DNA of 64,000 nt from Candidatus Sungiibacteriota bacterium (lineage in GTDB: Bacteria > Patescibacteriota > Minisyncoccia > Sungbacterales > SURF-37). Numbering within the stretch: the stretch's first letter is position 1; each line of letters starts with the position of its first letter. Where the stretch lies: assembly GCA_016186145.1 (NCBI GenBank), contig JACPMF010000007.1, positions 19,302-83,301 of the forward strand, in the 5' to 3' direction. The notes under the pieces were generated by a model. It had not been told where the DNA came from. It saw only the letters and a program-made list of their open reading frames with translations, and searched no databases. A program made the translations under genes and the position numbers. Shown here piece by piece: positions 5,925 through 56,637 of this stretch.

Positions 5925-6125
5925 GCCAAATTTATTTAAATTTTGGAGCGAAGCGATAAAATTTAACTATAAATTTGAGCACCCCGTTAGATGCGGAAAT
6001 ATAGTAGTTTTCTACGCCTGGTAAAGTTATACGTGTTATACTTTTTGTAAATTTTTTTATGGTTTGTTCCGCTATCTAACGGGGTAAAGGTTTGGCGGCT
6101 GCGATTTTTGCGCCTGCCGCTTAAA
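5925..6125 (-). promoter_or_regulatory. conserved structured upstream element, copy U1 (family also at 18405, 34662, 56461)
   Basis: Sits directly upstream of the start codon. Shares the flanks ...TTTATAGTTA...AGCACC[hairpin]GGTAAAGGTTT with the other copies. Long-range stem CACCCCGTTAGAT / ATCTAACGGGG. Confidence 0.5.
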
Positions 6126-6142
6126 ATCGCAGGCCAAGCCCT

Positions 6143-7411
6143 TTATATTTTTAACAACTTCTCCAGCTTCTCCCTCTCATACGCCGGCCCCAGAAGCGCT
6201 AGGTTCATTGTCTCCTCCTTTATTATATCACGAGCAACGCTCTGAATGTCTTCAACACTCACCGCATCGAGCTTTTTAAAAACCTCATCAATGGTCAGCG
6301 GCTTGCCGGTAAGAATCTCTTCGCCGCCGATAAAAGTGGCGAGGTTGGAAGAAGACTCCATGCCAATCAAGCTCGTTCCTTTTACGTAATCCCTCGCTTT
6401 CTTAAGCTCCTCTTCGGGAACCTTCAAATCGCGTATTTTCCTATACTCGCCGAGAATTGTTTCGATCGCTTTATCAAGCTTTTCTACGGGAACCCCGGCA
6501 TATGTCGCGAGGTAACCATAACGGCTATAATCGTCGAAACTCGTTGAAATATGATACGCGAGGCCAAGCTCTTCCCGTACTTCCAAAAACATGCGGGAGC
6601 TCATACCGCCGCCAAGAATCGTTGCAAGAAGGGACGCGGGCCATACACGCGGATCGTCCTTGCCGAAACCGCGAAAACCAAGAATAACGTGCATCTGATC
6701 CGTTTTCTTTTCCTCGTGAAAAAACGCGGGGGAAGATTGTCCTTCTTTGACTTTTGGCTGCGTCCTTGGCTCTCCGTCACGAAGGTCCCGGAAAGTCTCT
6801 TTTATTTTCTCAACCACCGCAGCCTCATTTTTAATGTTTCCGGCAACAATCACCGCAGTGTTTTTGGCAACGTACTGGCTATGAAAATAATCGACAAAAT
6901 CATCCCGCTTGAGAGATTTGATAACGGGTTCTTCGCCAAGCGTCTCCCACCCTGCCGGCTGATCTCCATATAACAACCTCTCCCAAAGGTAACCGGCCCG
7001 CTGGGGCGGATCGTCATGCCGCATGTGCATTTCTTCAATTATTACTCCCCGCTCGCGCTCTATCTCTTCTGCGGGGAGCGTTGAATTCAAAAATATGTCC
7101 GTCACTACATCAAAGGCCTGATCAAAATACTGGTAGCCGACTTTGGCAAAGTACCCCGTATATTCATTCGAGGTGAATGCGTTATACACCGCACCAAGGC
7201 CGTCGAGCTCAACCGCGATCTGAATTTTTGAAGGCCGTTTTACGGTGCCCTTGAAAAACATGTGCTCAAGAAAATGCGAGATGCCGTTGTTCTGCCGTGT
7301 CTCATGATTTGATCCGGTTCCCACAAAAATCAAAACCGTCACGGTGTTTGTCCCGCTCATTGAGGCCGTCAATATTCTCATCCCATTTGGAAGAACTTCT
7401 TTTTTGAACAT
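6143..7411 (-). CDS. M16-family zinc peptidase (insulinase/pitrilysin-like)
   Basis: HxxEH inverted zincin motif (HFLEHMFFKGT), about 420 aa, peptidase M16 architecture. Confidence 0.85.
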   Translation of the reverse strand: MFKKEVLPNGMRILTASMSGTNTVTVLIFVGTGSNHETRQNNGISHFLEHMFFKGTVKRPSKIQIAVELDGLGAVYNAFTSNEYTGYFAKVGYQYFDQAFDVVTDIFLNSTLPAEEIERERGVIIEEMHMRHDDPPQRAGYLWERLLYGDQPAGWETLGEEPVIKSLKRDDFVDYFHSQYVAKNTAVIVAGNIKNEAAVVEKIKETFRDLRDGEPRTQPKVKEGQSSPAFFHEEKKTDQMHVILGFRGFGKDDPRVWPASLLATILGGGMSSRMFLEVREELGLAYHISTSFDDYSRYGYLATYAGVPVEKLDKAIETILGEYRKIRDLKVPEEELKKARDYVKGTSLIGMESSSNLATFIGGEEILTGKPLTIDEVFKKLDAVSVEDIQSVARDIIKEETMNLALLGPAYEREKLEKLLKI

Positions 7412-7420
7412 GCGAATTTT

Positions 7421-7645
7421 CTAAAGTTTTAAAAACTCTTTAAGAGAAAGACCGGCTTGTTTGAGGATCTTTAACAACAGGCCGCGACCGATATCTTTAC
7501 CGCCGTGCATTGGAACAGATGTCAGATGTTTCGTTACAGGATGCTGAAAGAAATAATGGCTGCCCTTTGCGTATATAAAACGAAAACCGGCGCGAACCAA
7601 TTTTCTTATAACCGTCCGGGCACCTATAATTGGTAATACGCTCAT
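7421..7645 (-). CDS. hicA: type II toxin HicA (YcfA-like mRNA interferase)
   Basis: 74 aa. ...KGSHYFFQHP...VPMHGGKDIGRGLLLKILKQAGL... matches the HicA/YcfA family. Overlaps the upstream hicB-like ORF by 4 nt. Confidence 0.8.
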   Translation of the reverse strand: MSVLPIIGARTVIRKLVRAGFRFIYAKGSHYFFQHPVTKHLTSVPMHGGKDIGRGLLLKILKQAGLSLKEFLKL

Positions 7646-7911
7646 GCAACTGGTGCAAAAGAAGAGCGCCCATGGTTCTTTATTATTTGAATTACACCCT
7701 TCCTTTCCGCGTTAACTATAGCGCTAGCTTCAATGGCGCCTTCCACAGCTTCGGCAATCATTCGCCTTGCTTCAGCAATGGTCCTTCCCCAAGAAACCGC
7801 GCCCGGGACAGTACGAGCTTCCGCGGTAAAGCCGCCCATATCTTTCTCCGGCTCAAAAACGCACTCAAAAACTCCGTACTTTGTTTTTATAGATAAAATT
7901 TTCTTTACCAT
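7642..7911 (-). CDS. hicB: HicB-family antitoxin (UPF0150 / RNase H-like fold N-domain)
   Basis: 89 aa. YGVFECVFEPEKDMGGFTAEARTVPGAVSWGRTIAEARRMIAEAVEGAIE has the HicB N-domain pattern. 4-nt overlap with hicA. Confidence 0.7.
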   Translation of the reverse strand: MVKKILSIKTKYGVFECVFEPEKDMGGFTAEARTVPGAVSWGRTIAEARRMIAEAVEGAIEASAIVNAERKGVIQIIKNHGRSSFAPVA

Positions 7912-7938
7912 AAACGTACTTTAACACGTAAGCAGTCC

Positions 7939-9324
7939 CTATTGCAACCGTTCCGCGAAATAACTTTCCAAATCTTTCGCCGCAACTCTTTCTTGTTTCA
8001 TGCTGTCCCGATCCCGCACCGTAACTGTTTCGTCTTCCAGCGTCTGAAAATCAACAGTCACACACCACGGCGTCCCTATCTCATCCTGGCTGTAGTAGCG
8101 TTTACCGATATTCCCGCGGTCGTCCCACATCACCTGAACTTGGAATTTACCTGCCCGCCGGCCAGGCAGGGAACTTGGAGCTTTGAAAAGCTGATATATC
8201 TGGCGCGCTTTCTCAACCAACTGCGGCTTATTGGCAAGCAATGGAAACACGGCAACTTTGTACGGCGCGAGCCGCGGATGTAATTTTAGAACCACCCTGC
8301 CTTCTTCTTCATGATATGCATCAAGCAGAAAATACAACAACGGACGCTCGACGCCGCAGGAGGTTTCAATCACCCACGGAATGAAACGATCTTTTACCTC
8401 CGGATCAAAATACGAAAGATCCTCGCCGCTGAATTTTGCATGTTGTGACAAGTCCCAATTACCCCGATTATGAATTCCCTCAGCCTCTTTCCACCCAAAC
8501 GGCGTTTCGTATTCGATGTCCCAGGCCGAACGCGCATAGTGCGCCCGTTCATCCGGCGCGTGCTCCCGAAAACGAAGTCTATCCTTATTCAAGCCGAGCC
8601 CAATATACCATTTCATTCTTTCCTCTTTCCAAAATTCAAAAACTTCCGCCGCCGCTTTCTCTTCCGGACGCACGTAATACTGCAATTCCATTTGCTCAAA
8701 TTCGCGGAGCCGATAGGTAAAGTTCCCTGGCGTAATTTCGTTCCTGAAGGCTTTTCCAATCTGGGCAACGCCGAATGGAATTTTCGGATGCATGGAGTCG
8801 AGGATATTCTTAAAATTCACATGAACGCCTTGCGTTATCTCCCCGCGGAGATACACGGTTGATTTAGATTCTTCAACCGCGCCAAGCCTTGCTTCAACAA
8901 GAAGATTGAACTTCCGCGGCTCAGTCCAATCAACTTTCTCTTTCTTTGCTTTATGCCCCTCCCCGTGCGCCCTTATCTCTTCGTCAAAGTCGGCGCGGAT
9001 TCTTTCGTGGCATGTTTTGCATTCAACCAAAGGGTCGGTGAAAGAAGCGGTGTGTCCCGAAGCCTCCCATACTTTGGGGCTCATCAGGATCGAGGCGTTT
9101 ATCCCGAAAACATTTTCGCGGCGCAACACCATGTACTCCCACCACTGCTGTTTGAAATTAAATTTCAACTCCGCACCCAACGGGCCATAATCCCATGTTC
9201 CGGAAAGCCCGCCGTAAATCTCGGATCCGGGATAAATAAATCCGCGCCGCTTTGCAAGGGAGACAATTTTATCCATCAGCGATTGAGTTTCCTCTTTCAT
9301 CTTTTTCTTTTTAGTCTGAACCAA
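7939..9324 (-). CDS. glyQS: glycyl-tRNA synthetase (dimeric GlyQS type)
   Basis: N-terminus ...MDKIVSLAKRRGFIYPGSEIYGGLSGTWDYGPLG... with class II motifs. The track start is a TTG. ATG at 9300 (MKEETQSL...) is more likely. Contains an in-frame palindromic insertion (APSSLPGRRAGKFQ). Confidence 0.9.
   Translation of the reverse strand: MVQTKKKKMKEETQSLMDKIVSLAKRRGFIYPGSEIYGGLSGTWDYGPLGAELKFNFKQQWWEYMVLRRENVFGINASILMSPKVWEASGHTASFTDPLVECKTCHERIRADFDEEIRAHGEGHKAKKEKVDWTEPRKFNLLVEARLGAVEESKSTVYLRGEITQGVHVNFKNILDSMHPKIPFGVAQIGKAFRNEITPGNFTYRLREFEQMELQYYVRPEEKAAAEVFEFWKEERMKWYIGLGLNKDRLRFREHAPDERAHYARSAWDIEYETPFGWKEAEGIHNRGNWDLSQHAKFSGEDLSYFDPEVKDRFIPWVIETSCGVERPLLYFLLDAYHEEEGRVVLKLHPRLAPYKVAVFPLLANKPQLVEKARQIYQLFKAPSSLPGRRAGKFQVQVMWDDRGNIGKRYYSQDEIGTPWCVTVDFQTLEDETVTVRDRDSMKQERVAAKDLESYFAERLQ
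8136..8178. repeat. in-frame GC-rich palindromic insertion element inside glyS (family also in the femAB-family, Mur ligase and tatD genes)
   Basis: GAACTTGG-AATTTAC-CTGCCCGCCGGCCAGGCAGG-GAACTTGG: hairpin CCTGCCCG/CAGGCAGG flanked by a direct GAACTTGG repeat. Near-identical core to 28583..28610. Confidence 0.5.
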
Positions 9325-9573
9325 ACGCGCGGTCGAGGCAATTTCTTACCAACGATTTTTAATTCCGCCAATCCCGCCGTACGGCAACTCTGTAGCCCCG
9401 ACAGGCTTGGTCTTTCGCGAAGCGAAAGCTGTCGGGGCGAAAGCGTAGCGAGGGCGAGCCGCTGGAGTCCAGACGCGAGAGCCCTCCGCGAAACTCGCCG
9501 CAGGCGAGTGAGTCGGAGGCTCCCGTCTCCGAGCCGGAGCGGTGCCGTTAGGCGGGATGGGCGGAATAATGCG
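9325..9573 (-). other. GC-rich (~65%) highly structured intergenic region immediately upstream of glyQS; candidate leader/ncRNA
   Basis: Nested hairpins: GCCCCGACAG...CTGTCGGGGC enclosing CTTTCGCGAAGCGAAAG, plus GAGGGC...GCCCTC and CTGGAGTCCAG. No credible ORF. The track's 272-aa + strand ORF spanning it overlaps glyS antisense and is rejected. Confidence 0.3.
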
Positions 9574-11469
9574 CTACGGTACTACCCTCCACTGGGTGCT
9601 GTCCCGAACCGTATCTTGCTGAAGTTCAATGGTAACATTTCCAACAGTAACCTTGAGCGGCTCTTTCGTAAAGTCGTCAACCCCTTCCGCGCGCACTCCG
9701 GAGACAAGAACCGGGGAAAGGCCGATTTGATCTTCGCCCGGGATAAGAGAAACGCGAAACGCAAGAGTTAATTGCGGCCGTAAAATTCCGGCGCCTGCGG
9801 CAAGACGCGGAACATTCCAGACAACCTCATTGGACGCGGCATTAAAAACTGCGGAACCCGCCACTTCGCCTACGGTTCCGAGCCAACGGACGTTTGCCGG
9901 AAGCCCCCCTCTAACTTCAAGGTTCACCGCATCGTTGGTTTGATTCGCAAGCTGCCAGAAAACCGTATAGGTCGTCTCTTCCCGCACTTTCGGCGGCAAC
10001 GGACCGGAGTTCTGGACCGAAGAGTCAAAATATGCCGCGTGCCCCTTCAGAGTAAGCATGGTGCCGATTTTAAAATCAAGCTTATCCTCATATCGAAGCT
10101 TTATGCCGCGAAACTCTTCCGGTACAACAGAAAGATCAATGATGCCGAGGGAACTTAATGTAAAATTTCTGTCCGAAGAGCTCCTCAAAGGCGGCGAGGG
10201 CCGGAGTATTACCGAAAAATTCAAAACACCTTCCTGCCCCGGGTTGACCCTTTTCAATTCGGGACGGGTTGCCCCGGCCCAACGAATTTCGTGATTCAAG
10301 GGATCGTAAACGCCATTATCAATTCGCAATGTCGTTAAATTAACGAGCCCTTCGGAAAGACGCACGGCAACAGTCATACCGTCGATCGGTTTAGAAAGAT
10401 TATTTTTATAGGACAAGGCGAAATTAAGAAGTTCTCCGCCGACAAAGGTCCCGCTCCTTCGGCTATTTACGGTCTGCCGCAAAAAAAGAAACGGGGAAGC
10501 AATTTTGGGTCCGCGCGACTCTTCAAGAAGAGTAAACCATTCGCGCGTCTCGGAACGATATTGCCCCAATGACGCATTGAATGATTTTGTTTCTTCCGGC
10601 TCGCCGCGAAGCATGCCCTTAACAATTATTTTTTTTGAAGTACCGCGCCCAAAATCTCCAAGAGCCCAAATGTTATTCTCAAAGTCCGGCTTCGGATCTG
10701 CAGAAGTAAATTCAAATCCTTCCGGATAGTCGACACGGAGCGCAAGTCCGCTGACGACAGATACCGCCTCGCTATCAACCAAAAACTCCATAGAAACGTC
10801 CTGCGCGGAGGATATTTCTTCAGGACCCGATACGGTAACAGCGAACGGAACACGCGAAATCCGAAACATCCGAGAGGCCCTCTTGGTAAAACGGCTTTCA
10901 AGATTTCCCGGCTGGTATATTGCAAGAACAACCAATTCGGCTTCATTGCCGATCTTGCCCAAACTTTTGAACGCAATGTCATGTTTCACCTCTTCATTCG
11001 GGGCTATCTTTTCAAAAGTAACCTGCTCGCGGCTTCCCGGTTTCGCCTCGCCAGTCGGAGGAAACAACACGACCGTGTGATCCGGATAATTGATCGTGAG
11101 CTCTACATTTTTAAGTTCGGATCTACCGGTGTTCTTCACAAAAATAGAAAAATCAGCCCGCTCGCCCGCCACAACGCCATCAGGCCCGGCGATAACAATT
11201 GCAACTTCTTCCCTGACAAAAAAGACCTGATACCCCACATACAAAACAACGCCCGCAAGAACCACAAATGAAAAAATAAAAACATTCAAAAACCACCGGC
11301 CCCGCTTCGGCGCCGAGGGAGCCTTCTCTCCACGCAGAGACCTGTCTGTCCAAAATGTCTTGGCTCCATCTCCCCTCTTTTGCGAACGGAAACGCTCTCT
11401 TTCAATCAACCTTTTCTCCGGCTCTTCCCGGCCGTATAGCTTTTGGCGAAGTTCTTCAAGTGATGGCAT
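9574..11469 (-). CDS. large membrane-anchored hypothetical protein, N-terminal TM plus ~550-aa extracytoplasmic region
   Basis: 631 aa. Cytoplasmic K/R/E-rich N-terminus, one TM (WFLNVFIFSFVVLAGVVLYVGY), then beta-rich repeats resembling DUF11/CARDB-like surface domains. Confidence 0.6.
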   Translation of the reverse strand: MPSLEELRQKLYGREEPEKRLIERERFRSQKRGDGAKTFWTDRSLRGEKAPSAPKRGRWFLNVFIFSFVVLAGVVLYVGYQVFFVREEVAIVIAGPDGVVAGERADFSIFVKNTGRSELKNVELTINYPDHTVVLFPPTGEAKPGSREQVTFEKIAPNEEVKHDIAFKSLGKIGNEAELVVLAIYQPGNLESRFTKRASRMFRISRVPFAVTVSGPEEISSAQDVSMEFLVDSEAVSVVSGLALRVDYPEGFEFTSADPKPDFENNIWALGDFGRGTSKKIIVKGMLRGEPEETKSFNASLGQYRSETREWFTLLEESRGPKIASPFLFLRQTVNSRRSGTFVGGELLNFALSYKNNLSKPIDGMTVAVRLSEGLVNLTTLRIDNGVYDPLNHEIRWAGATRPELKRVNPGQEGVLNFSVILRPSPPLRSSSDRNFTLSSLGIIDLSVVPEEFRGIKLRYEDKLDFKIGTMLTLKGHAAYFDSSVQNSGPLPPKVREETTYTVFWQLANQTNDAVNLEVRGGLPANVRWLGTVGEVAGSAVFNAASNEVVWNVPRLAAGAGILRPQLTLAFRVSLIPGEDQIGLSPVLVSGVRAEGVDDFTKEPLKVTVGNVTIELQQDTVRDSTQWRVVP

Positions 11470-17990: not shown

Positions 17991-18404
17991 CTAGAGGAAA
18001 AAATAAGTATCGATCCCCCACGCACCCGCACCCAAAAAAATGAGCGCTGCGGCCATCGCAAAATACGCAAGATCCAATTCCCAACCGCCTTGTACCGTAA
18101 AACCGACCTTCCCCCACTTTGCCTTCCACATGGCAACCAACATGCTTATTGCGATAAAAACCGCCGCAATTTGAGTGTAGAAACCAAGAAGAACCGCGAT
18201 GCCGCCGAAAAATTCCGCAACACCCGATACAATAATCCAAAACTTTCCCGGCCTGATGCCGATGGAGTCAAACCACCCGGCAGTTCCGGTTCGCGCTTCG
18301 CGGTTAAAAAGCTTCGGGTAGCCGTGAACGATAAAGGCCAGCCCGAGGACAAGCCGAAGAATGAGCGCGGCGAAATCGCCGTATACGAGAAGTGAATAAA
18401 ACAT
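17991..18404 (-). CDS. DoxX-family membrane protein
   Basis: 137 aa, 4 TM helices, LRLVLGLAFIVHGYPKL... matches the DoxX pattern. Confidence 0.75.
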   Translation of the reverse strand: MFYSLLVYGDFAALILRLVLGLAFIVHGYPKLFNREARTGTAGWFDSIGIRPGKFWIIVSGVAEFFGGIAVLLGFYTQIAAVFIAISMLVAMWKAKWGKVGFTVQGGWELDLAYFAMAAALIFLGAGAWGIDTYFFL

Positions 18405-18546
18405 GCCAATTTTATTTATGAGCGTTAGCGAATAACTATAAAATTGAGCACCCTGTTAAATAATTTCGCCTCTGGCGAAAATCCCTTGTCAATTAAAATC
18501 GTAGATTTTATTTGACAAGGGATTTAACAGGGTAAAGTTTTGTTCC
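18405..18546 (-). promoter_or_regulatory. conserved structured upstream element, copy U2
   Basis: Abuts the doxX start codon. Three stems: CCCTGTTAAAT/ATTTAACAGGG, ATTTCGCC/GGCGAAAAT and CCTTGTCAATTAAAA/TTTATTTGACAAGG. The last stem carries compensatory G:C to T:A changes relative to copy U3. Confidence 0.55.
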
Positions 18547-18593
18547 TGAAATCTGTTCGACCTGTCTCCAAATCTCAGACAAAAGCTCTACCT

Positions 18594-26501: not shown

Positions 26502-26528
26502 GGGCGAGCACTGCTCGCCCTGTTTTTA
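26502..26528. terminator. bidirectional hairpin terminator
   Basis: GGGCGAGCACTGCTCGCCC followed by TGTTTTTAT. Preceded by a second hairpin GGCGGCAGTGGCTAATTCGCCGCC. Confidence 0.6.
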
Positions 26529-27860
26529 TTTCGGCCCCATTAATTCTTCCTTGGCAGCCTGCCTGTCGTCCCACGGTATTTTTACTCCGGCAGGACCCAT
26601 GATAAACCGTTCCGCCCCCTTGCCGGTGATAACCACCGTATCGCCGGGCATTGCGAGACGCAGAGCTTCACGAATTGCTTCACGACGATCGATATAGCTT
26701 TTAGCTTTTAGCTTATAGCTTATAGGTACGCCCACCGCAACATCATCTATAATTTTTTGTGGATTTTCATCGTATGGGTCTTCGTTGGTCAAAATAACTT
26801 CGCTGCAAAACTCCGAGGCGATTTTTCCCAACTCCGGGCGTTTCCATTTATCGCGCCCGCCTCCGGCAGCACCCAAGACGCAAAGGAGCTTAAATCTTGG
26901 AGCTTGTCCGCCGAAGGCGGATCCACCTCTGGCGGAGAGCTTGGAGCGCTTACGAAGCGTTTCATAAACTTTCCGCAATGCATTTGGAGTGTGGGCGTAA
27001 TCGACAACCACGCGAAACGGTTCGTTTTGAAGAACTTCAAGCCGACCGGGAATACTCTTTATATGTTTAAGAGCGCCGGCTATATTTTCAAAAGAAACCC
27101 CAAAAGAACGCGCCGTAGCGACAGCCGCAAGGATGTTAGAGACATTAAATTGCCCGAAGAGCGCTGAATAAAAATCTATTCCGCTCACCCGAAAATATAT
27201 TTCGTTTTCGCAAGAAACATTGCTCACCGAAAACTCAACGCCGCCAACAACCAAAGACGCCGTGCTGTAAAAATTTATTTTCGCGCGTGCTCGCTTTGCA
27301 AAAAATTCCCATGCCGGATCGTCGCGATTCAAAACTGCAATTCCGTCGGAACCAAGCGCCTCAAAAAGCTTTGCTTTTGCCGCACGGTATTTCTCAAAAT
27401 CGCCGTGCGACTCAATATGCTCCGGCGTCAAATTCGTAAAGACGGCACAATCAAATGTTATAAACCGGTGCCGAAATTGCTTGATGCCCTCGGAGGTGAC
27501 CTCGATGACGGCAAACCTCGCTCCGGCTCTTCGCGCATCGGCAAGAAACCGCTGGACGGCAAACCTTCCCGGCATGGTCATTTTGAGAACATTCGGCCGC
27601 TCGCTTTCATTAATCTTGAAACGAAGAGAGGAACAGGAGGCAACCGAATAACCGCTTTTCAAAAAAATCTCGTGCAGCAAAGAAACAACGCTCGACTTTC
27701 CATCCGTTCCGGTCACCCCAATGACAACGAGACGGCGCGAAGGGAAAAGATAAAAAAACGCCGCAAAAAAAGCCAGTAAAAAATGGTAAAACGGCTGAAG
27801 CATTTTGAAAATCGGCCGCGGAATAATTTTTTTTAGCAGGGCTAAAACGGAATTTGACAT
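26526..27860 (-). CDS. Mur ligase family protein (MurE/MurF-like UDP-N-acetylmuramoyl-peptide ligase)
   Basis: P-loop VIGVTGTDGKSS. Central and C-terminal Mur ligase domains. Short TM-containing N-terminus. Contains an in-frame palindromic insertion (...LSARGGSAFGGQAPRFK...). Confidence 0.7.
   Translation of the reverse strand: MSNSVLALLKKIIPRPIFKMLQPFYHFLLAFFAAFFYLFPSRRLVVIGVTGTDGKSSVVSLLHEIFLKSGYSVASCSSLRFKINESERPNVLKMTMPGRFAVQRFLADARRAGARFAVIEVTSEGIKQFRHRFITFDCAVFTNLTPEHIESHGDFEKYRAAKAKLFEALGSDGIAVLNRDDPAWEFFAKRARAKINFYSTASLVVGGVEFSVSNVSCENEIYFRVSGIDFYSALFGQFNVSNILAAVATARSFGVSFENIAGALKHIKSIPGRLEVLQNEPFRVVVDYAHTPNALRKVYETLRKRSKLSARGGSAFGGQAPRFKLLCVLGAAGGGRDKWKRPELGKIASEFCSEVILTNEDPYDENPQKIIDDVAVGVPISYKLKAKSYIDRREAIREALRLAMPGDTVVITGKGAERFIMGPAGVKIPWDDRQAAKEELMGPK
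26884..26958. repeat. in-frame palindromic insertion element inside the Mur ligase gene
   Basis: GAGCTTAAATCTTGGAGCTTG-TCCGCCGAAGGCGGATCCACCTCTGGCGGA-GAGCTTGGAGCGCTT. Shares CTTGTCCGCCGAAGGCG(G/A)ATCC with 28556..28580 and is flanked by direct GAGCTTGG repeats. Confidence 0.45.
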
Positions 27861-27930: not shown

Positions 27931-28914
27931 TCACCGCTTGCGTCTCAAAACGCGGAGGACGCTATAAAGAAAATACAGGCCGGGCCGATACACAACGTCC
28001 ACGGCCGAGGGGTATTCGATAACCTGCCCGCCGAAACCAATCTTGAACCGCGTCACTCCCGGCCACCGTCTTTCATCGACCCCCCAAAAATCGTAAAAGC
28101 CAAACCCGCGGTTTTTCGCTTCACGTATAATTTCCCAATGCAGAAGATGGGGGGCCATCATCTCTTTATACGCCCGGGACGAAGCTCCGTGTAGGTAAGT
28201 CGCCGTATGTGACGGCCCATAAAAATTGATAAGCGCGGCCGCCAAAATTTTATCTTCATAACGAGCAAAATAGAGTTCATTCCAAAAATTATCTGAACGG
28301 GTTTCAAAAAGAAACCGGTAGTGACGCTCGTCGTGAAGAGAAAAGCCATCCCGCTGCGACGTCTCGCAGAGAAGAGAAAAAAAGTTCCGGAATTGATCGC
28401 GTTCAACTCTTTGGACAACAACACCGTGCCGTGCCGCAAGACGAATATTGTAACGCGTCTTGGGGTGCATCTCCAAAAGCAACGCATCCTCGGTCTTTGA
28501 TAAATCGAGAATCAGCGTCTTTTGCGGCTGCAATGAATACGATTCGCGAACTTGAAACTTGTCCGCCGAAGGCGAATCCCCACCTGCCTGCCGGCCAGGC
28601 AGGGAACTTGCTTGCCCGCCGAAGCTCCAGCGTAGGCGGGGGGTTTGGAACTTTTCGATTGGTTCTACTCTTAGAAAAATACTTTTCTCCTCTTTTGCAA
28701 CTTTTTCCGCGCTTTCCAAAAATTTTTTGAGATCGCTTTTATTTTCAAAATGCGGCCGCGGAGCATACGCATAACCAAACCCGAAAGGAAGGGCGTGCTG
28801 AATCATAAGCGCGCCTTCCGCCCGCCATATTTTTCTTCCAATTCTTTGCTGAAACTGCTCCCATTCCGATGACTGTAAAAAAGAAATTTCCCGTTCTACT
28901 GAATATGCCATCAT
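27931..28914 (-). CDS. FemAB-family aminoacyl-tRNA-dependent peptidoglycan peptidyltransferase (FemX-like)
   Basis: About 327 aa, FemAB/GNAT-like fold signature (...YLHGASS...). Next to the Mur ligase gene. Carries the longest in-frame palindromic insertion (RWSFGGQASSLPGRQAGGDSPSADKFQV). Confidence 0.75.
   Translation of the reverse strand: MMAYSVEREISFLQSSEWEQFQQRIGRKIWRAEGALMIQHALPFGFGYAYAPRPHFENKSDLKKFLESAEKVAKEEKSIFLRVEPIEKFQTPRLRWSFGGQASSLPGRQAGGDSPSADKFQVRESYSLQPQKTLILDLSKTEDALLLEMHPKTRYNIRLAARHGVVVQRVERDQFRNFFSLLCETSQRDGFSLHDERHYRFLFETRSDNFWNELYFARYEDKILAAALINFYGPSHTATYLHGASSRAYKEMMAPHLLHWEIIREAKNRGFGFYDFWGVDERRWPGVTRFKIGFGGQVIEYPSAVDVVYRPGLYFLYSVLRVLRRKR
28535..28660. repeat. in-frame palindromic insertion element inside the FemAB-family gene (longest copy)
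   Basis: GAACTTGAAACTTG-TCCGCCGAAGGCGAATCCCCACC-TGCCTGCCGGCCAGGCAGG-GAACTTG-CTTGCCCGCCGAAGC-TCCAGCGTAGGCGGGGGGTTTG-GAACTT: central hairpin CCTGCCTG/CAGGCAGG, repeated CCGCCGAAG modules and GAACTTG direct repeats. Confidence 0.5.
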
Positions 28915-29914: not shown

Positions 29915-31957
29915 ATGTCAAACTTCAAACTTTTTTCAAATTTCAAACCAACCGGAGATCAACCGGGCGCCATTAGCCGACTAACGGCAAATCTGCACGC
30001 CGGCATTAAACATCAAACCCTCTTAGGGGTAACCGGTTCCGGGAAAACATTCACGATGGCAAACGTTATTGAGCGCGTGCAGAAACCAACGCTTGTAATC
30101 TCGCACAACAAAACGCTCGCCGGACAGCTTTACCAGGAATTCAAAGAGTTTTTTCCGAAGAATTCGGTCCATTATTTCGTGTCGTACTACGACTACTACC
30201 AACCGGAAGCATACATTCCCCGAACGGATACCTATATAGAAAAGGATGCAAAAATCAACGATATAATAGACGCCCTCCGGCACGCCGCAACCGCATCCCT
30301 CCTGACGCGCAACGACGTCATTATCGTCGCATCCGTATCGTGCATCTACGGCATCGGCGACCCGGAGGAATACGAAAAAATCACTCTTGATTTAGAAATC
30401 GGCAAAAAAATCGCGCGTCGCGATCTTTTACACTACCTTGTTCTTTTGCAATACGCCAAAAATGAATTTGATCCGCGCCAAGGACATTTCCGCGCGCGAG
30501 GAGACATGATAGAGATTTACCTTCCGTCCGGAGAAGAAATAATCGACGTGGAACTTGAAAACAATATAGTCGTATCGCTGAAGAAACGCCGGCAGCAAAA
30601 CCAAATTCACGATTCTGAATTCCAAACGCTTAATTCCGCGAAAATCTTTCCGGCGAAACACTTTGTCACGCCGCGCCAGAAACTTGAACTGGCCATAAAA
30701 AATATCCGCCAGGAACTGAAAGAACGCCTCTCGGCGCTCAAGAAAAACGGACGGCCGCTCGAAGCCGAGCGGCTGGAGCAACGAACCCATTTTGACCTGG
30801 AAATGTTGAAAGAAACCGGATATACGAACGGGATTGAGAATTATTCCCGCCACCTATCATTTCGCGAACCCGGTTCTCCGCCATCCACCCTTATCGACTA
30901 CTACCGCCACCGTTTTGGCAATCAGTTTCTTGTATTTATCGACGAATCGCATGTGTCTATTCCACAACTTCGCGGCATGTATCACGGCGACTATGCGCGA
31001 AAGCAAACCCTTGTTGATTACGGCTTCCGCTTGCCGTCTGCCATAGACAACAGACCGCTGAAGTTCACGGAGTTTGATAAAAAAATTAACCAACGAATTT
31101 ATGTTTCAGCAACACCGTCTGAGTATGAACTTAATCTGAGCCGCAGTTCGCATTCAGGCGTTCTAAGTTCTCCGCCAGAGGCGGATAAGCTCAAAGTCCC
31201 AAATTCATACGTCGTAGAGCAGTTCATCCGTCCGACCGGAGTTCTTGACCCGGAAACCGAAATCCGACCGACAAAGGGTCAAATCAAAAATGTCATCGCT
31301 GAAATTAAAAAACGCGTAGCCAAAAAAGAACGCTCTCTCGTCCTCGCTCTGACAAAACGCCTCGCAGAAGATATCGCCGAATACCTGCAGGAAGCGGGCA
31401 TCAAAGCCGAATACCTCCACTCCGAAGTAAAAACACTGGAACGCTCTGATATCCTCAAAAATTTGAGAACGGGAAAACATGACGTAATCGTCGGCATCAA
31501 TCTTTTGCGGGAAGGCCTTGATCTGCCGGAGGTTTCTCTTATCGCCATCCTGGACGCCGACAAGGAAGGATTTTTGAGAAACGAAACAACTCTCCTTCAA
31601 ATCATGGGGCGCGCCGCGCGGCATGTTGACGGCAAGGTGGTTCTCTACGCGGACACCATAACCGATTCGATGCGGCGGGCAATCGGCGAAACGAAGCGCC
31701 GGAGAAAAATTCAAGCGGAATACAACAAAAACAACGGCATTACCCCAAAAAAAATTGAAAAGGCAATACGAAAATCTCTCCTTGAAGAAATCGCTCCCGC
31801 CAAAAAGGAAGAAGAAATTTTTACGCCTTTAAACGCGCCCTCTCGAGAGGCTGTATCCGCCTTAGAGCGCGAGATGCGTAAAGCGGCAAAGGAGATGAAC
31901 TTCGAATTGGCCGCGAGAATTAGAGATCGTATTAAAATGTATAAACAGCAAAAATGA
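29915..31957 (+). CDS. uvrB: excinuclease ABC subunit B
   Basis: GVTGSGKTF Walker A, helicase motifs, UvrB interaction domain and C-terminal UvrB/UvrC domain (...EMNFELAARIRDRI...). 680 aa. Confidence 0.95.
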   Translation: MSNFKLFSNFKPTGDQPGAISRLTANLHAGIKHQTLLGVTGSGKTFTMANVIERVQKPTLVISHNKTLAGQLYQEFKEFFPKNSVHYFVSYYDYYQPEAYIPRTDTYIEKDAKINDIIDALRHAATASLLTRNDVIIVASVSCIYGIGDPEEYEKITLDLEIGKKIARRDLLHYLVLLQYAKNEFDPRQGHFRARGDMIEIYLPSGEEIIDVELENNIVVSLKKRRQQNQIHDSEFQTLNSAKIFPAKHFVTPRQKLELAIKNIRQELKERLSALKKNGRPLEAERLEQRTHFDLEMLKETGYTNGIENYSRHLSFREPGSPPSTLIDYYRHRFGNQFLVFIDESHVSIPQLRGMYHGDYARKQTLVDYGFRLPSAIDNRPLKFTEFDKKINQRIYVSATPSEYELNLSRSSHSGVLSSPPEADKLKVPNSYVVEQFIRPTGVLDPETEIRPTKGQIKNVIAEIKKRVAKKERSLVLALTKRLAEDIAEYLQEAGIKAEYLHSEVKTLERSDILKNLRTGKHDVIVGINLLREGLDLPEVSLIAILDADKEGFLRNETTLLQIMGRAARHVDGKVVLYADTITDSMRRAIGETKRRRKIQAEYNKNNGITPKKIEKAIRKSLLEEIAPAKKEEEIFTPLNAPSREAVSALEREMRKAAKEMNFELAARIRDRIKMYKQQK

Positions 31958-33734: not shown

Positions 33735-34661
33735 CTATCCTGTCTGCCGCCCCCCCACAAACAACTCCAGAAACGCAACCGGACCCGAAAGGCGTCCGGT
33801 TTTTATGTTTTCGTCCACGCGGAGAAGCCGCCGATAGTCGAAAATGATTTTTTTCAAAGACAGCCCGGCCGCGGTCTGATAAGTTTTTTTCGCAACAAAC
33901 TCATGAAGACCGAGCGCCCGGCCAACTGCCGACGGTGCTGTGTTTTTCTCGATGGCCGCGCGAAAAGAAATCAACGAACGAAGCGTTTTCGCGAGCGCGC
34001 CAAGAAGGTACAATTCATGCTCGCCGGCAAAAAGAAGCCGCAGAGCCGCCCCCAAAGAACGCCCTCTTTTACCGACAAATGAATCCGTAAAATCCCAAAT
34101 TTTTGCTTCCCGGAGACCCTCGCCATTTTCAAAAAGAAACCCTGCCTCAACTTTTGAAAGTTCACTGGTTAGTTTCCAAAGATCGCCGCCGGAAGAATCA
34201 AGAAGCAGTCGTTTGGCTTCTGACCGGAGAGTCGCCCCCCTACGGAGAAGTTCTTTCTCAAACCAGGAAGCGAGTTTTACTCCCGACAACAACCGGAATT
34301 CTTGAGTCTTTACGGCACTCTCTCGAACAGTAGAAAGTATCTCGCTTTCCTCAACCATAACCGGATCCCAAAAAACGAACGTACAATCTTTTGATGCGGC
34401 CCACTCCTTAAGAAGCGGCCTCACCAAAGAAAACTGTTTTTCTCCCGCCCCAGAAATTCTTTCGATAATAAAAAGCCGCCTTGGCGCCAAAAAAGACGGC
34501 GTGCGGCTCTCGTACCCAACCACTTCGATATTTTCCTCCTCGGCGTCAACGCGCTTTACAAAAGCAGCAGCCCCGCCGGCCTTCTTTCTAAATTCTCCGA
34601 CTATGCCGCGGAGAGTCATGCGGCTGCGGTAGGTATCGGGACCGGAAAGAAGATAGATCAT
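33735..34661 (-). CDS. holA: DNA polymerase III delta subunit
   Basis: 308 aa. N-terminus MIYLLSGPDTYRS..., AAA+-like clamp-loader delta architecture. Confidence 0.7.
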   Translation of the reverse strand: MIYLLSGPDTYRSRMTLRGIVGEFRKKAGGAAAFVKRVDAEEENIEVVGYESRTPSFLAPRRLFIIERISGAGEKQFSLVRPLLKEWAASKDCTFVFWDPVMVEESEILSTVRESAVKTQEFRLLSGVKLASWFEKELLRRGATLRSEAKRLLLDSSGGDLWKLTSELSKVEAGFLFENGEGLREAKIWDFTDSFVGKRGRSLGAALRLLFAGEHELYLLGALAKTLRSLISFRAAIEKNTAPSAVGRALGLHEFVAKKTYQTAAGLSLKKIIFDYRRLLRVDENIKTGRLSGPVAFLELFVGGRQTG

Positions 34662-34803
34662 GCGAATTTTATTTACGAGCGTTAGCGAGTAACTATAAAA
34701 TTCAGCACCCTGTTAAATAATTTCGCCTCTAGCGAAATTCCCTTGGCAAATAAAATCGAGGGTTTATTTGCCAAGAGATTTAACAGGGTAAAGGTTTTGT
34801 AGC
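34662..34803 (-). promoter_or_regulatory. conserved structured upstream element, copy U3
   Basis: Directly abuts the holA ATG. Stems CCCTGTTAAAT/ATTTAACAGGG, ATTTCGCC/GGCGAAAT (loop TCTA) and CTTGGCAAATAAA/TTTATTTGCCAAG. About 90% identical to U2 outside the covarying positions. Confidence 0.55.
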
Positions 34804-34846
34804 TATTTTTGCTTCGCCTCCGGCTCATAAAAATAGACAAAGCCCT

Positions 34847-35251
34847 TTATAGGTACTCGCTCCGTATAATCGTCTGAACTTTTTCGATAATTTCGCCCGG
34901 CGTAAAATAGGCCTTAACCAAGTAATCTTTCACTCCGAAACTTTTCGCGCGCCTTACATCTTCTTCCTGGCCGAGGTTCGAGAGAACCACAACGGGAATT
35001 TTTTTCAAATCCGGATCGTCCTGCATTGTCCGTAACACCTCAAACCCGTCAAGGATCGGGGGCAGAAGATCGAGAAGGATGATGTGCGGCCGCGGCTCAC
35101 CTTTCATTTTTACCAGCGCTTCTTGACCATTCTCCGCGCTTATTACTAATAAGCCCTCGCGCTTCAACTTTTCTGCAAGAAGCGTCAGCAAAAATTTATC
35201 GTCCTCAACGACCAAAATGACAAATTTGTTAAGCGCAATTCCGTTAGGCAT
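34847..35251 (-). CDS. single-domain response regulator (CheY-like receiver)
   Basis: VLVVEDD...D(54-equivalent)LLPPILDGFEV...K. 134 aa. Lies downstream of the histidine kinase gene. Confidence 0.85.
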   Translation of the reverse strand: MPNGIALNKFVILVVEDDKFLLTLLAEKLKREGLLVISAENGQEALVKMKGEPRPHIILLDLLPPILDGFEVLRTMQDDPDLKKIPVVVLSNLGQEEDVRRAKSFGVKDYLVKAYFTPGEIIEKVQTIIRSEYL

Positions 35252-37717: not shown

Positions 37718-37753
37718 GAACAAAACACCTCTTTTACAATACCAGTATACTCC

Positions 37754-37790
37754 GCGCTACAACTTCGTTGTAGCGCGTTTATTTTATTTT
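37754..37790 (+). terminator. rho-independent terminator
   Basis: GCGCTACAACTTCGTTGTAGCGC hairpin followed by GTTTATTTTATTTT. Confidence 0.55.
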
Positions 37791-37810
37791 AAAAGTCATC
37801 TCAAAACTTA

Positions 37811-37910
37811 CATCCGCGCTTTCCGCGTAACAATCCGCATCGATCCGCGGGGACTCCGCGGAAATATGCGGATAGCGACGCAGATTTATACGGAAGTCGA
37901 TTTTGAAATT
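37811..37910. repeat. intergenic repeat family R2, copy B
   Basis: CATCCGCGCTTTCCGCG...ATCCGCGGGGACTCCGCGGAAATATGCGGATAGCGACGCAGATTTATACGGAAGTCGATTTTGAAATTGAT is homologous to 11521..11618. Confidence 0.5.
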
Positions 37911-37914
37911 GATC

Positions 37915-56329: not shown

Positions 56330-56460
56330 AAAATAAAAATTGCAATATGGCGTGGCGGTTTACCAAACTGGAGCCGCATAAAAGTTTGGACAAATAAACA
56401 AAAGTGCGCTACCAATTAAAGGGCTTTATCCAAAATTTAGAGCCGGTGGCGAACAAATTT

Positions 56461-56637
56461 TGGTTACAAAACATTACCCTGTTAAATAATTTTGCCGCAG
56501 GCAAAATTCCCCTGTTAAATCTTTTGCCTTCGGCAAAAGAAAACCAAGGGTTTTATTTAACAGGGGATTTAACAGGGTGCTGAATTTTACAGTCGCTCGC
56601 GCTGCGCAAAATACTTACGCTCGCGAGTAAAATTTGC
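56461..56637 (+). promoter_or_regulatory. conserved structured upstream element, copy U4 (inverted in window coordinates but same orientation relative to its gene)
   Basis: TTACCCTGTTAAAT ... ATTTAACAGGGTGCTGAATTTTACAGT... ends at the ATG of 56638. Internal stems TTTTGCC(GCAG)GGCAAAA, CCCCTGTTAAAT...ATTTAACAGGGG and TTTTGCC(TTCG)GGCAAAA. Confidence 0.55.

Follow-up and report, generated by a model that had tools for sequence, protein, structure and literature searches.

A 206-nucleotide (nt), GC-rich sequence built of nested palindromes separates a gene for a DUF11/CLIPPER-like membrane protein from glyS, the gene of a glyQS-type class II glycyl-tRNA synthetase (GlyRS), in a 64,000-nt stretch of DNA from Candidatus Sungiibacteriota bacterium (assembly GCA_016186145.1, contig JACPMF010000007.1, positions 19,302 to 83,301), which we refer to as the window. 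[quoted passage not shown] The original prediction, made from the letters of the window, had described positions 9325-9573 as a highly paired sequence that could be a regulatory leader of glyS, a small RNA gene or a cluster of palindromic insertion elements. Its GlyRS places the window among the Parcubacteria (Paceibacterota) of the candidate phyla radiation (CPR). This GlyRS is 72% identical to that of the best species representative and 80% identical to the best non-self protein in the database.

Both genes that flank the element are carried by the minus strand, with an intergenic distance of 273 nt, and along this strand the DUF11-like gene is followed by 6 nt, the element, 61 nt and glyS (Table 1). 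The region is on the transcribed strand, flanked by the upstream stop codon and by glyS, as had been predicted. The description of the region as GC-rich was equally correct: GC content is 63.5% for positions 9325-9573 and 67.0% for the 206-nt core, compared to 49.0% for the whole window. The GC maximum of the 64 kb falls in the element, and only 0.03% of 206-nt segments are equally GC-rich. On the gene strand, no open reading frame (ORF) of at least 20 amino acids (aa) was found in the element beyond one 24-aa TTG fragment, in line with the earlier statement that the region holds no credible ORF; several of its reading frames are free of stop codons. ARAGORN (tRNA and tmRNA) and TRF (tandem repeats) returned no match on the element, in agreement with the reported lack of a tmRNA signature.

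The whole region is closed by a terminal inverted repeat of 17 nt, ATTCCGCC[A/C]ATCCCGCC, which can be extended to 30 nt at 83% and makes the region one discrete 206-nt unit. All stems listed in the original prediction were located on the plus strand, and the folding goes far beyond that of shuffled sequences; this outermost repeat had been overlooked. The 8-mer ATYCCGCC, which is present in tandem in the 5′ arm of the repeat, is not enriched elsewhere in the window. The interior consists of four or five local, independent, nearly perfect palindromes with 3-nt loops rather than the tetraloops of RNA type. The best-conserved module among family copies is a composite hairpin in which, on the plus strand, GCCCCGACAG starts at 9395, CTGTCGGGGC at 9429 and the enclosed CTTTCGCGAAGCGAAAG at 9412, and whose asymmetric bulge at 9405-9411 reads ACCAAGC on the minus strand. 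RNA folding yielded −128.7 kcal/mol for the minus (gene) strand (z = −7.0, with none of 200 shuffles as good) and −127.9 kcal/mol for the plus strand (z = −5.2), and folding of the element with DNA parameters yielded z = −8.0. The minimum free energy of the element lies between −120 and −122 kcal/mol; 74-77 of a possible 103 base pairs form, and the closing stem comprises approximately 22 bp.

Comparison with orthologous sites indicates that the element is a lineage-specific addition to this locus. In two Logan assemblies obtained from other sequencing runs of the same species, the spacer is 100% identical and the element is unchanged. About 60 of 84 loci have retained the order DUF11-like gene to glyS, usually with 0-80 nt between the two genes. 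The six nearest relatives, whose GlyRS proteins are 77-80% identical to that of the window and which have the same gene order, carry AT-rich spacers of 60-180 nt without the element. Their spacers contain a conserved extended −10 box, TGnTATATT, that ends 7-8 nt before the first ATG (coordinates for five of the loci are in Table 1). A promoter so close to the start codon leaves essentially no glyS leader and suggests a leaderless or near-leaderless glyS mRNA in the clade of the relatives. The box is missing upstream of glyS in the window, where the 61-nt spacer houses a weak promoter-like site, TCGACC-17-TAAAAA, at 9336..9308, ending 7 nt before the ATG at 9300. Since the element is absent from the spacers of the nearest relatives, it is a lineage-specific insertion and not a conserved leader, and it is placed between the upstream stop codon and the position of the relatives' glyS promoter, in the lineage of this species only.

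These data bear directly on the proposal that the sequence is a cis-regulatory glyS leader, i.e., a T-box or an attenuator that senses tRNA-Gly, glycine or GlyRS. In Firmicutes, glyQS is regulated by a T-box. Like the glyQS T-box of Bacillus, the element is approximately 200 nt long, highly structured and located upstream of a glycyl-tRNA synthetase gene, on the transcribed strand, and a related element of another genome (locus L046, see below) is found in the same place. Yet no defining feature of a T-box was found in the element, and it is not conserved upstream of orthologous glyS genes: in the six nearest relatives, the ATG is instead preceded by a promoter at a distance of 7-8 nt. A search of the whole window with Rfam 15 at gathering score retrieved two tRNAs only, and searches of positions 9200-9700 and 9270-9620 at E ≤ 10 added nothing but spurious matches (to an archaeal snoRNA, scoring 17 bits, and to a viral pseudoknot, scoring 14 bits), i.e., no credible family. 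The T-box model RF00230, Stem I included, gave no match at E ≤ 10. The 14-nt T-box sequence AGGGUGGNACCGCG has no match within three mismatches in the element; the nearest such match (9575-9588) is in the coding end of the DUF11-like gene, 5′ of the element. Across the window, 13 matches were observed, compared to 14.8 expected by chance, in agreement with the earlier failure to find the canonical motif. No intrinsic terminator or σ70-type promoter was detected in or beside the element (9300-9573, gene strand) and the sequence after the closing stem reads TAAAAAT and is no U-run, which leaves the suggested terminator/antiterminator alternative without a terminator-like site. In L046, a −10-like box (our reading of the sequence) is located 7 nt from the ATG, downstream of the element, and one further family member lies inside a TatD gene. 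Lack of an Rfam match combined with lack of conservation upstream of glyS in related genomes is the outcome that the original prediction itself had named as speaking against a leader, and it is largely the outcome obtained. We therefore regard the leader proposal as largely refuted and very unlikely. If an aminoacyl-tRNA synthetase gene is preceded by a GC-rich, strongly folded sequence, this alone does not make the sequence a T-box or riboswitch. About a quarter of the long spacers in these genomes fold this well (z < −4 for 22 out of 93 with a length of 120-400 nt, seven of the 22 being in the window).

Two further copies point to a family. Other genomes were sampled at glyS neighbourhoods only, so that any apparent link of the family with the glyS locus is inflated. 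Covariance model R2 was built from the window copy alone and R3 from two sequences; the E-values of such short-calibrated models are rough. R2 retrieved positions 7819-7997 of locus L048 with 51.7 bits. Read on its reverse strand, this sequence reached 24.7 bits, and, with filters off, all other palindromic spacers scored at most 22.7 bits. Because the reverse strand controls for both composition and palindromy, the L048 match is orientation-specific. As can be seen from the alignment, the window and L048 copies both have AUYCC...GGRAU ends and a long closing stem, in which 11 pairs are compensatory; also common to them are the 3′ composite hairpin (helices of 5, 10 and 7 bp) and the blocks CGCU(U/C)UCG and AGAG(U/C)UGCCG. 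Out of 77 pairs, 24 differ at both positions, and pairing extends to 95% of cells, although such counts, taken from a model-fitted alignment, lean towards structure. The same 3′ module appears independently in the minimum-energy fold of the L048 sequence itself, and the L048 copy has a perfect 17-nt inverted repeat, AAAATCCCAATCAGAGT.

The L048 copy is located inside an ORF for a TatD DNase (7605..8636, Pfam E = 3.8e-63), whose frame is open throughout, and both flanks of the insert match TatD. Compared to solved structures, this TatD contains approximately 52-63 extra residues exactly at the element, with query residues 72-136 corresponding to residues 80-92 of 1j6o. The same ORF has a second insertion at L048:8085-8165, of approximately 27 aa, that consists of repeated palindromic units GGAAG(C/T)CGGACTTCC.

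The third copy, L046:3802-3943, was picked out by R3. It is in the DUF11-glyS spacer, starts 1-2 nt after the stop codon and is oriented like the window copy. Two independent links support it: an exact composite motif, CTCTCGG-N23/24-ACCNNGCCC-N6-CCTGCGAGA, is common to L046 and L048 and present in only these two of 224 loci (the looser form of the family motif is CTYTCG-N-ACCNNGCC), and L046 matches the window at 21 of 25 nt in a block over the inner hairpin and bulge (z 4.6-5.2). The bulge reads ACCAAGC in the window, ACCGAGC in L048 and ACCAUGC in L046, with the consensus ACC(A/G/U)(A/U)GC. GC content of the three copies is 0.67, 0.65 and 0.52 in the window, L048 and L046, respectively, and their lengths range from 142 to 206 nt. 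The window GlyRS is only 62% identical to the GlyRS of L046 and L048, which form part of another clade, as do L035 and L042. Of the readings in the original prediction, the insertion reading comes closest to the evidence: the insertion is discrete, is bounded by terminal inverted repeats, and has a relative at a different type of site. It is, however, not a cluster of the window's short palindromes but a separate and much larger family.

Compensatory changes in the stems and an asymmetric bulge conserved in all three copies could also be expected of a functional structured RNA, either an element in the 3′-UTR (untranslated region) of the DUF11-like gene or a small RNA in its own right, which selection on its structure would maintain and which would be exchanged horizontally among Parcubacteria, with the TatD copy as a stray. 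All three copies are on the sense strand of the surrounding genes, and two of the three begin 2-6 nt after a DUF11 stop codon. In L046 and L048, the sense strand has eight G-U pairs against four A-C mismatches, but the difference lacks significance and was counted on a model-fitted alignment. Selection at the level of RNA would be expected to favor one strand, and no such signal was found in the folding energies of the window copy (−120.1 vs. −122.1 kcal/mol for the two strands) or the L048 copy (−105.1 vs. −110.5 kcal/mol). Perfect triloop palindromes also speak against this possibility, as do the absence of the element from the nearest relatives and the presence of an unrelated element in L035, whose GlyRS is 88% identical to that of L046. 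Neither a promoter nor a terminator was found, and no Rfam family is matched by any of the three copies (searches with the L048 and L046 sequences also gave nothing credible), so a small RNA gene finds no support. Since, in addition, one copy is translated in frame within TatD, we consider a functional RNA unlikely.

The DUF11-glyS slot appears to be a site of repeated change. In L035, the spacer is an unrelated, structured sequence of 269 nt, and in L042, L059 and L004, yet other long elements with pairing ends occupy the slot. It follows that the slot has been repeatedly and independently occupied by different palindromic elements. The spacers of L035, L042, L059 and L062 were considered as members of the family and rejected, since their scores are at background; those at L042:3692-3982 and L059:3680-3982 are long near-perfect palindromes unrelated to the element. 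A different element of approximately 160 nt is found at L004:3822-3984 (plus strand) and L001:2094-2258 (minus strand), in different spacers. It has 10 compensatory pairs of 44, long identical unpaired stretches and no Rfam match, and represents another unannotated family; it was rejected as a copy of the present one because the model R1 finds nothing in the window.

Strong structure being common in long spacers, one could suppose that the element grew in place, i.e., that a small hairpin or terminator located after the stop codon of the DUF11-like gene was expanded by template switching into an insulator or terminator. Hairpin-capable sequence does follow the stop codon in relatives, and L083 contains CCCGCCTAA of the 5′ arm at a similar offset. 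However, by our own estimate, a 9-mer match of this kind has a chance expectation of roughly 6%, the closing stem has no U-tract, and local growth cannot explain homologous copies in TatD and in a distant clade. This scenario is, in our view, quite unlikely. Even less can be said for an inverton, in which a recombinase would flip the 172-nt segment between the inverted repeats as a promoter switch. The arrangement of 17-nt inverted repeats around a short segment directly upstream of a gene is what such a switch would look like, but the orientation is the same in three out of three assemblies, the segment contains no promoter-like site on either strand and is itself made of palindromes, and one would hardly expect phase variation to act on a housekeeping synthetase. 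We consider it exceedingly unlikely.

Several observations weigh against a mobile element, which we nevertheless favor. Three copies are known in all, and with filters off there is only one in the 64-kb window, while MITEs are multicopy. Plain Smith-Waterman alignment of the window and L048 copies is not significant, so their link rests on the covariance model with its reverse-strand control. Similarly, R3 does not separate L046 (25.4 bits) from generic palindromes, and the membership of L046 rests on shared motifs. No target-site duplication is consistent across the three copies: TTA|TTCCGCC...GGCGGAA|TTA is possible in the window, none is seen in L048, and TAGG in L046 is offset by 1 nt. MITEs are typically AT-rich and have AT-rich targets (PMC10969869), while GC content in this family is 0.52-0.67. 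The fact that two of three copies are in the same slot and orientation relative to glyS would also fit a function tied to the locus. Searches for more copies yielded no additions. No match to the element was found by nhmmer and blastn in 1.8 Mb of fetched loci or by BLAST in plasmids and phages. Scanning of JGI metagenomes with a 22-base inverted-repeat pattern produced no match, and a second scan with both inverted-repeat cores returned six loci, all of them chance matches on GC-rich soil contigs without internal similarity. Three scans of IMG/VR, for which the inverted repeat, inner hairpin and family motif served as patterns, produced chance matches or none, and two six-frame peptide searches with the window and L048 copies against 5.8 billion protein clusters gave no match. 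No transposase or parent insertion sequence (IS) with the same inverted repeats was identified, pattern scans again giving chance matches. Given the lack of a consistent target-site duplication, of AT-richness, of multiple copies in the 64 kb and of a parent IS, we do not claim formal membership of a named family.

MITEs are described as sequences of less than 500 bp that have no transposase gene or ORF, have terminal inverted repeats of about 4-30 bp and flanking duplications, and are multicopy and AT-rich (PMC10969869). The element, with 206 nt, no coding capacity, 17-nt terminal inverted repeats and a stable fold, resembles them in these respects, as it does in its presence or absence at an orthologous site and in having a copy at a non-orthologous site, the TatD gene of L048. 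RPEs insert in frame into genes (Ogata et al. 2000, 2002, summarised in PMC10969869). The likeness to RPEs lies in palindromic repeats of 100-200 bp that look non-coding, in a reduced genome, situated between genes as well as in frame in unrelated housekeeping genes whose ORFs stay intact; the in-frame behavior is displayed by the L048 copy, the window copy itself being intergenic. Unlike RPEs, to which it has no sequence relation, the element belongs to another phylum (CPR), has a GC content of 67% and three copies, and no conserved encoded peptide was found.

With the Correia elements (Correia repeat enclosed elements, CREE) of Neisseria, the enterobacterial repetitive intergenic consensus (ERIC), or intergenic repeat units (IRU), of enterobacteria and QMITE2 of Coxiella, the element shares a length of approximately 200 bp, terminal repeats of 17-30 nt and the absence of an ORF. 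Likewise shared are positions within or between co-directional genes and at the 3′ end of genes, and copy sizes that vary. The fold of QMITE2 (PMC10969869) is similar to the approximately −120 kcal/mol structure of the element. In contrast to these families, the element is GC-rich and has no clear target-site duplication, no multicopy evidence within one genome and no known related IS, and its interior is composed of perfect palindromes that are independent of each other, together with an asymmetric bulge that is conserved. Repetitive extragenic palindromic (REP) sequences are units of 20-40 nt present in hundreds of copies and associated with a RAYT transposase; REPs and the bacterial interspersed mosaic elements (BIMEs) stabilise upstream mRNA. 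As a GC-rich palindromic mosaic in a transcribed spacer between co-directional genes, the element resembles them, but its sub-palindromes do not recur in the window and a single terminal inverted repeat brackets the whole.

Table 1. Coordinates of the element, its parts and associated features (window positions unless a locus is named)
Feature	Coordinates	Strand	Remarks
Nested-palindromic GC-rich element (core), 206 nt	9362..9567	− (orientation of flanking genes)	terminal inverted repeat; GC 0.67; covariance-model relatives L048 and L046
Terminal inverted repeat, 5′ arm ATTCCGCCCATCCCGCC	9551..9567	−	two tandem ATYCCGCC 8-mers
Terminal inverted repeat, 3′ arm GGCGGGATTGGCGGAAT (minus strand)	9362..9378	−	one mismatch to the other arm
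Composite hairpin	9395..9438	−	10-bp stem GCCCCGACAG/CTGTCGGGGC around 7-bp CTTTCGC-N3-GCGAAAG, with asymmetric 7-nt bulge
Hairpin GAGGGC (9450)...GCCCTC (9481)	9450..9486	−	around palindrome CTGGAGTCCAG (9462-9472)
Perfect palindrome CTCGCC-GCA-GGCGAG	9494..9508	−	triloop hairpin (CTCGCCGCAGGCGAG at 9494)
Imperfect palindrome GTCGGAGGCTCC...CTCCGAGCCGGAG	9512..9539	−	
Spacer from element to glyS ATG, 61 nt	9301..9361	−	ordinary, AT-richer; weak promoter-like site only
DUF11/CLIPPER-like membrane protein gene, 631 aa	9574..11469	−	C-terminus intact; element starts 6 nt past the stop codon
glyS, glyQS-type class II GlyRS	7939..9300	−	alternative start 9276 (ATG chosen by gene callers)
TGnTATATT promoter regions of relatives	L083:3300-3337, L222:2960-3003, L224:2495-2539, L084:2820-2860, L223:1250-1289		
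AT-rich palindromic repeats	18396-18560, 34653-34851, 56417-56600, 6074-6147		strongly structured spacers, z −6 to −9

The surroundings of the element contain other insertions and palindromes. A HicA-toxin gene and a gene for an 89-aa partner (7421-7911, minus strand) are inserted between glyS and an M16 peptidase gene; in relatives, the peptidase gene is directly downstream of glyS and the hicA pair is missing. The GC skew of the 64-kb window passes uninterrupted through the element region, and a replication origin or terminus at the element was therefore rejected. Extremely structured spacers, with z down to −10, are also found at positions 37718-37914 of the window and at L064:8683-8920. 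A family of AT-rich palindromic repeats, which contain ATTTAACAGGGT motifs in both orientations, is present with three to four copies in spacers (Table 1).

Palindromes are also found within genes of the window. The GlyRS contains an in-frame insert of 12 aa, APSSLPGRRAGK (at approximately 8146-8181), that is missing in eight relatives. The palindrome that encodes it, TACCTGCCCGCCGGCCAGGCAGGGAA, recurs with 92% identity at 28581-28606, in a FemAB-family ORF (27931..28914, minus strand). Short, GC-rich palindromes of the form CCGCC-loop-GGCGG are located at 26886-26950 in a Mur-ligase ORF (26526..27860, minus strand), at 28551-28600 in the FemAB ORF and at 31158-31186 inside a UvrB ORF (29915..31957, plus strand). 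In both the Mur-ligase and the FemAB ORFs, which encode unrelated proteins, the palindromes encode the peptide S(A/W)FGGQA, a behavior that is RPE-like.

If the 206-nt element is indeed an insertion of this type, it would have landed 6 nt after the stop codon of the DUF11-like gene, in the short spacer in front of glyS, and it would spread, or would once have spread, as DNA by means of a transposase or recombinase acting in trans. Its main effect at the locus would be passive, effects on expression being secondary. A transcript of the DUF11-like gene that reads through would gain a structure of approximately −120 kcal/mol, which could block 3′-exonucleases, protect the upstream mRNA or impede read-through into glyS; the long closing stem could be cut by RNase III. 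Protection, reduced read-through and RNase III cleavage are suggested by analogy with Correia and ERIC elements, for which cleavage by RNase III at Correia inverted repeats, altered mRNA stability and effects of ERIC at the 3′ ends of genes have been described (PMC10969869). The insertion coincides with the loss of the strong promoter seen in relatives, and it may have displaced or replaced their extended −10 glyS promoter. With so stable a structure separating the two genes and the promoter lost at the same time, expression of an essential synthetase may have been rewired at this locus.

On a wider scale, we tentatively propose that Parcubacteria carry an undescribed mobile family of GC-rich nested palindromes, characterized by AUYCC...GGRAU ends and an ACC(A/G/U)(A/U)GC bulge, that inserts into intercistronic spacers and also, with the reading frame kept, into genes of essential or housekeeping function. 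The bulge could be either the recognition site of a hairpin-binding transposase or a motif that acts at the RNA level. The literature searched contained no paper linking RPE-like palindromic elements with CPR. The very small genomes of CPR bacteria are regarded as streamlined, with little mobile DNA. The locus studied here shows rapid turnover of palindromic elements in a single spacer, along with in-frame inserts in GlyRS, Mur ligase, FemAB and TatD. These observations would gain in interest should the family turn out to colonise CPR genes in the manner of RPEs. If its mobility is confirmed, it would mean that palindromic selfish DNA reshapes both the operon spacers and the protein surfaces of CPR bacteria, as RPEs do in Rickettsia.

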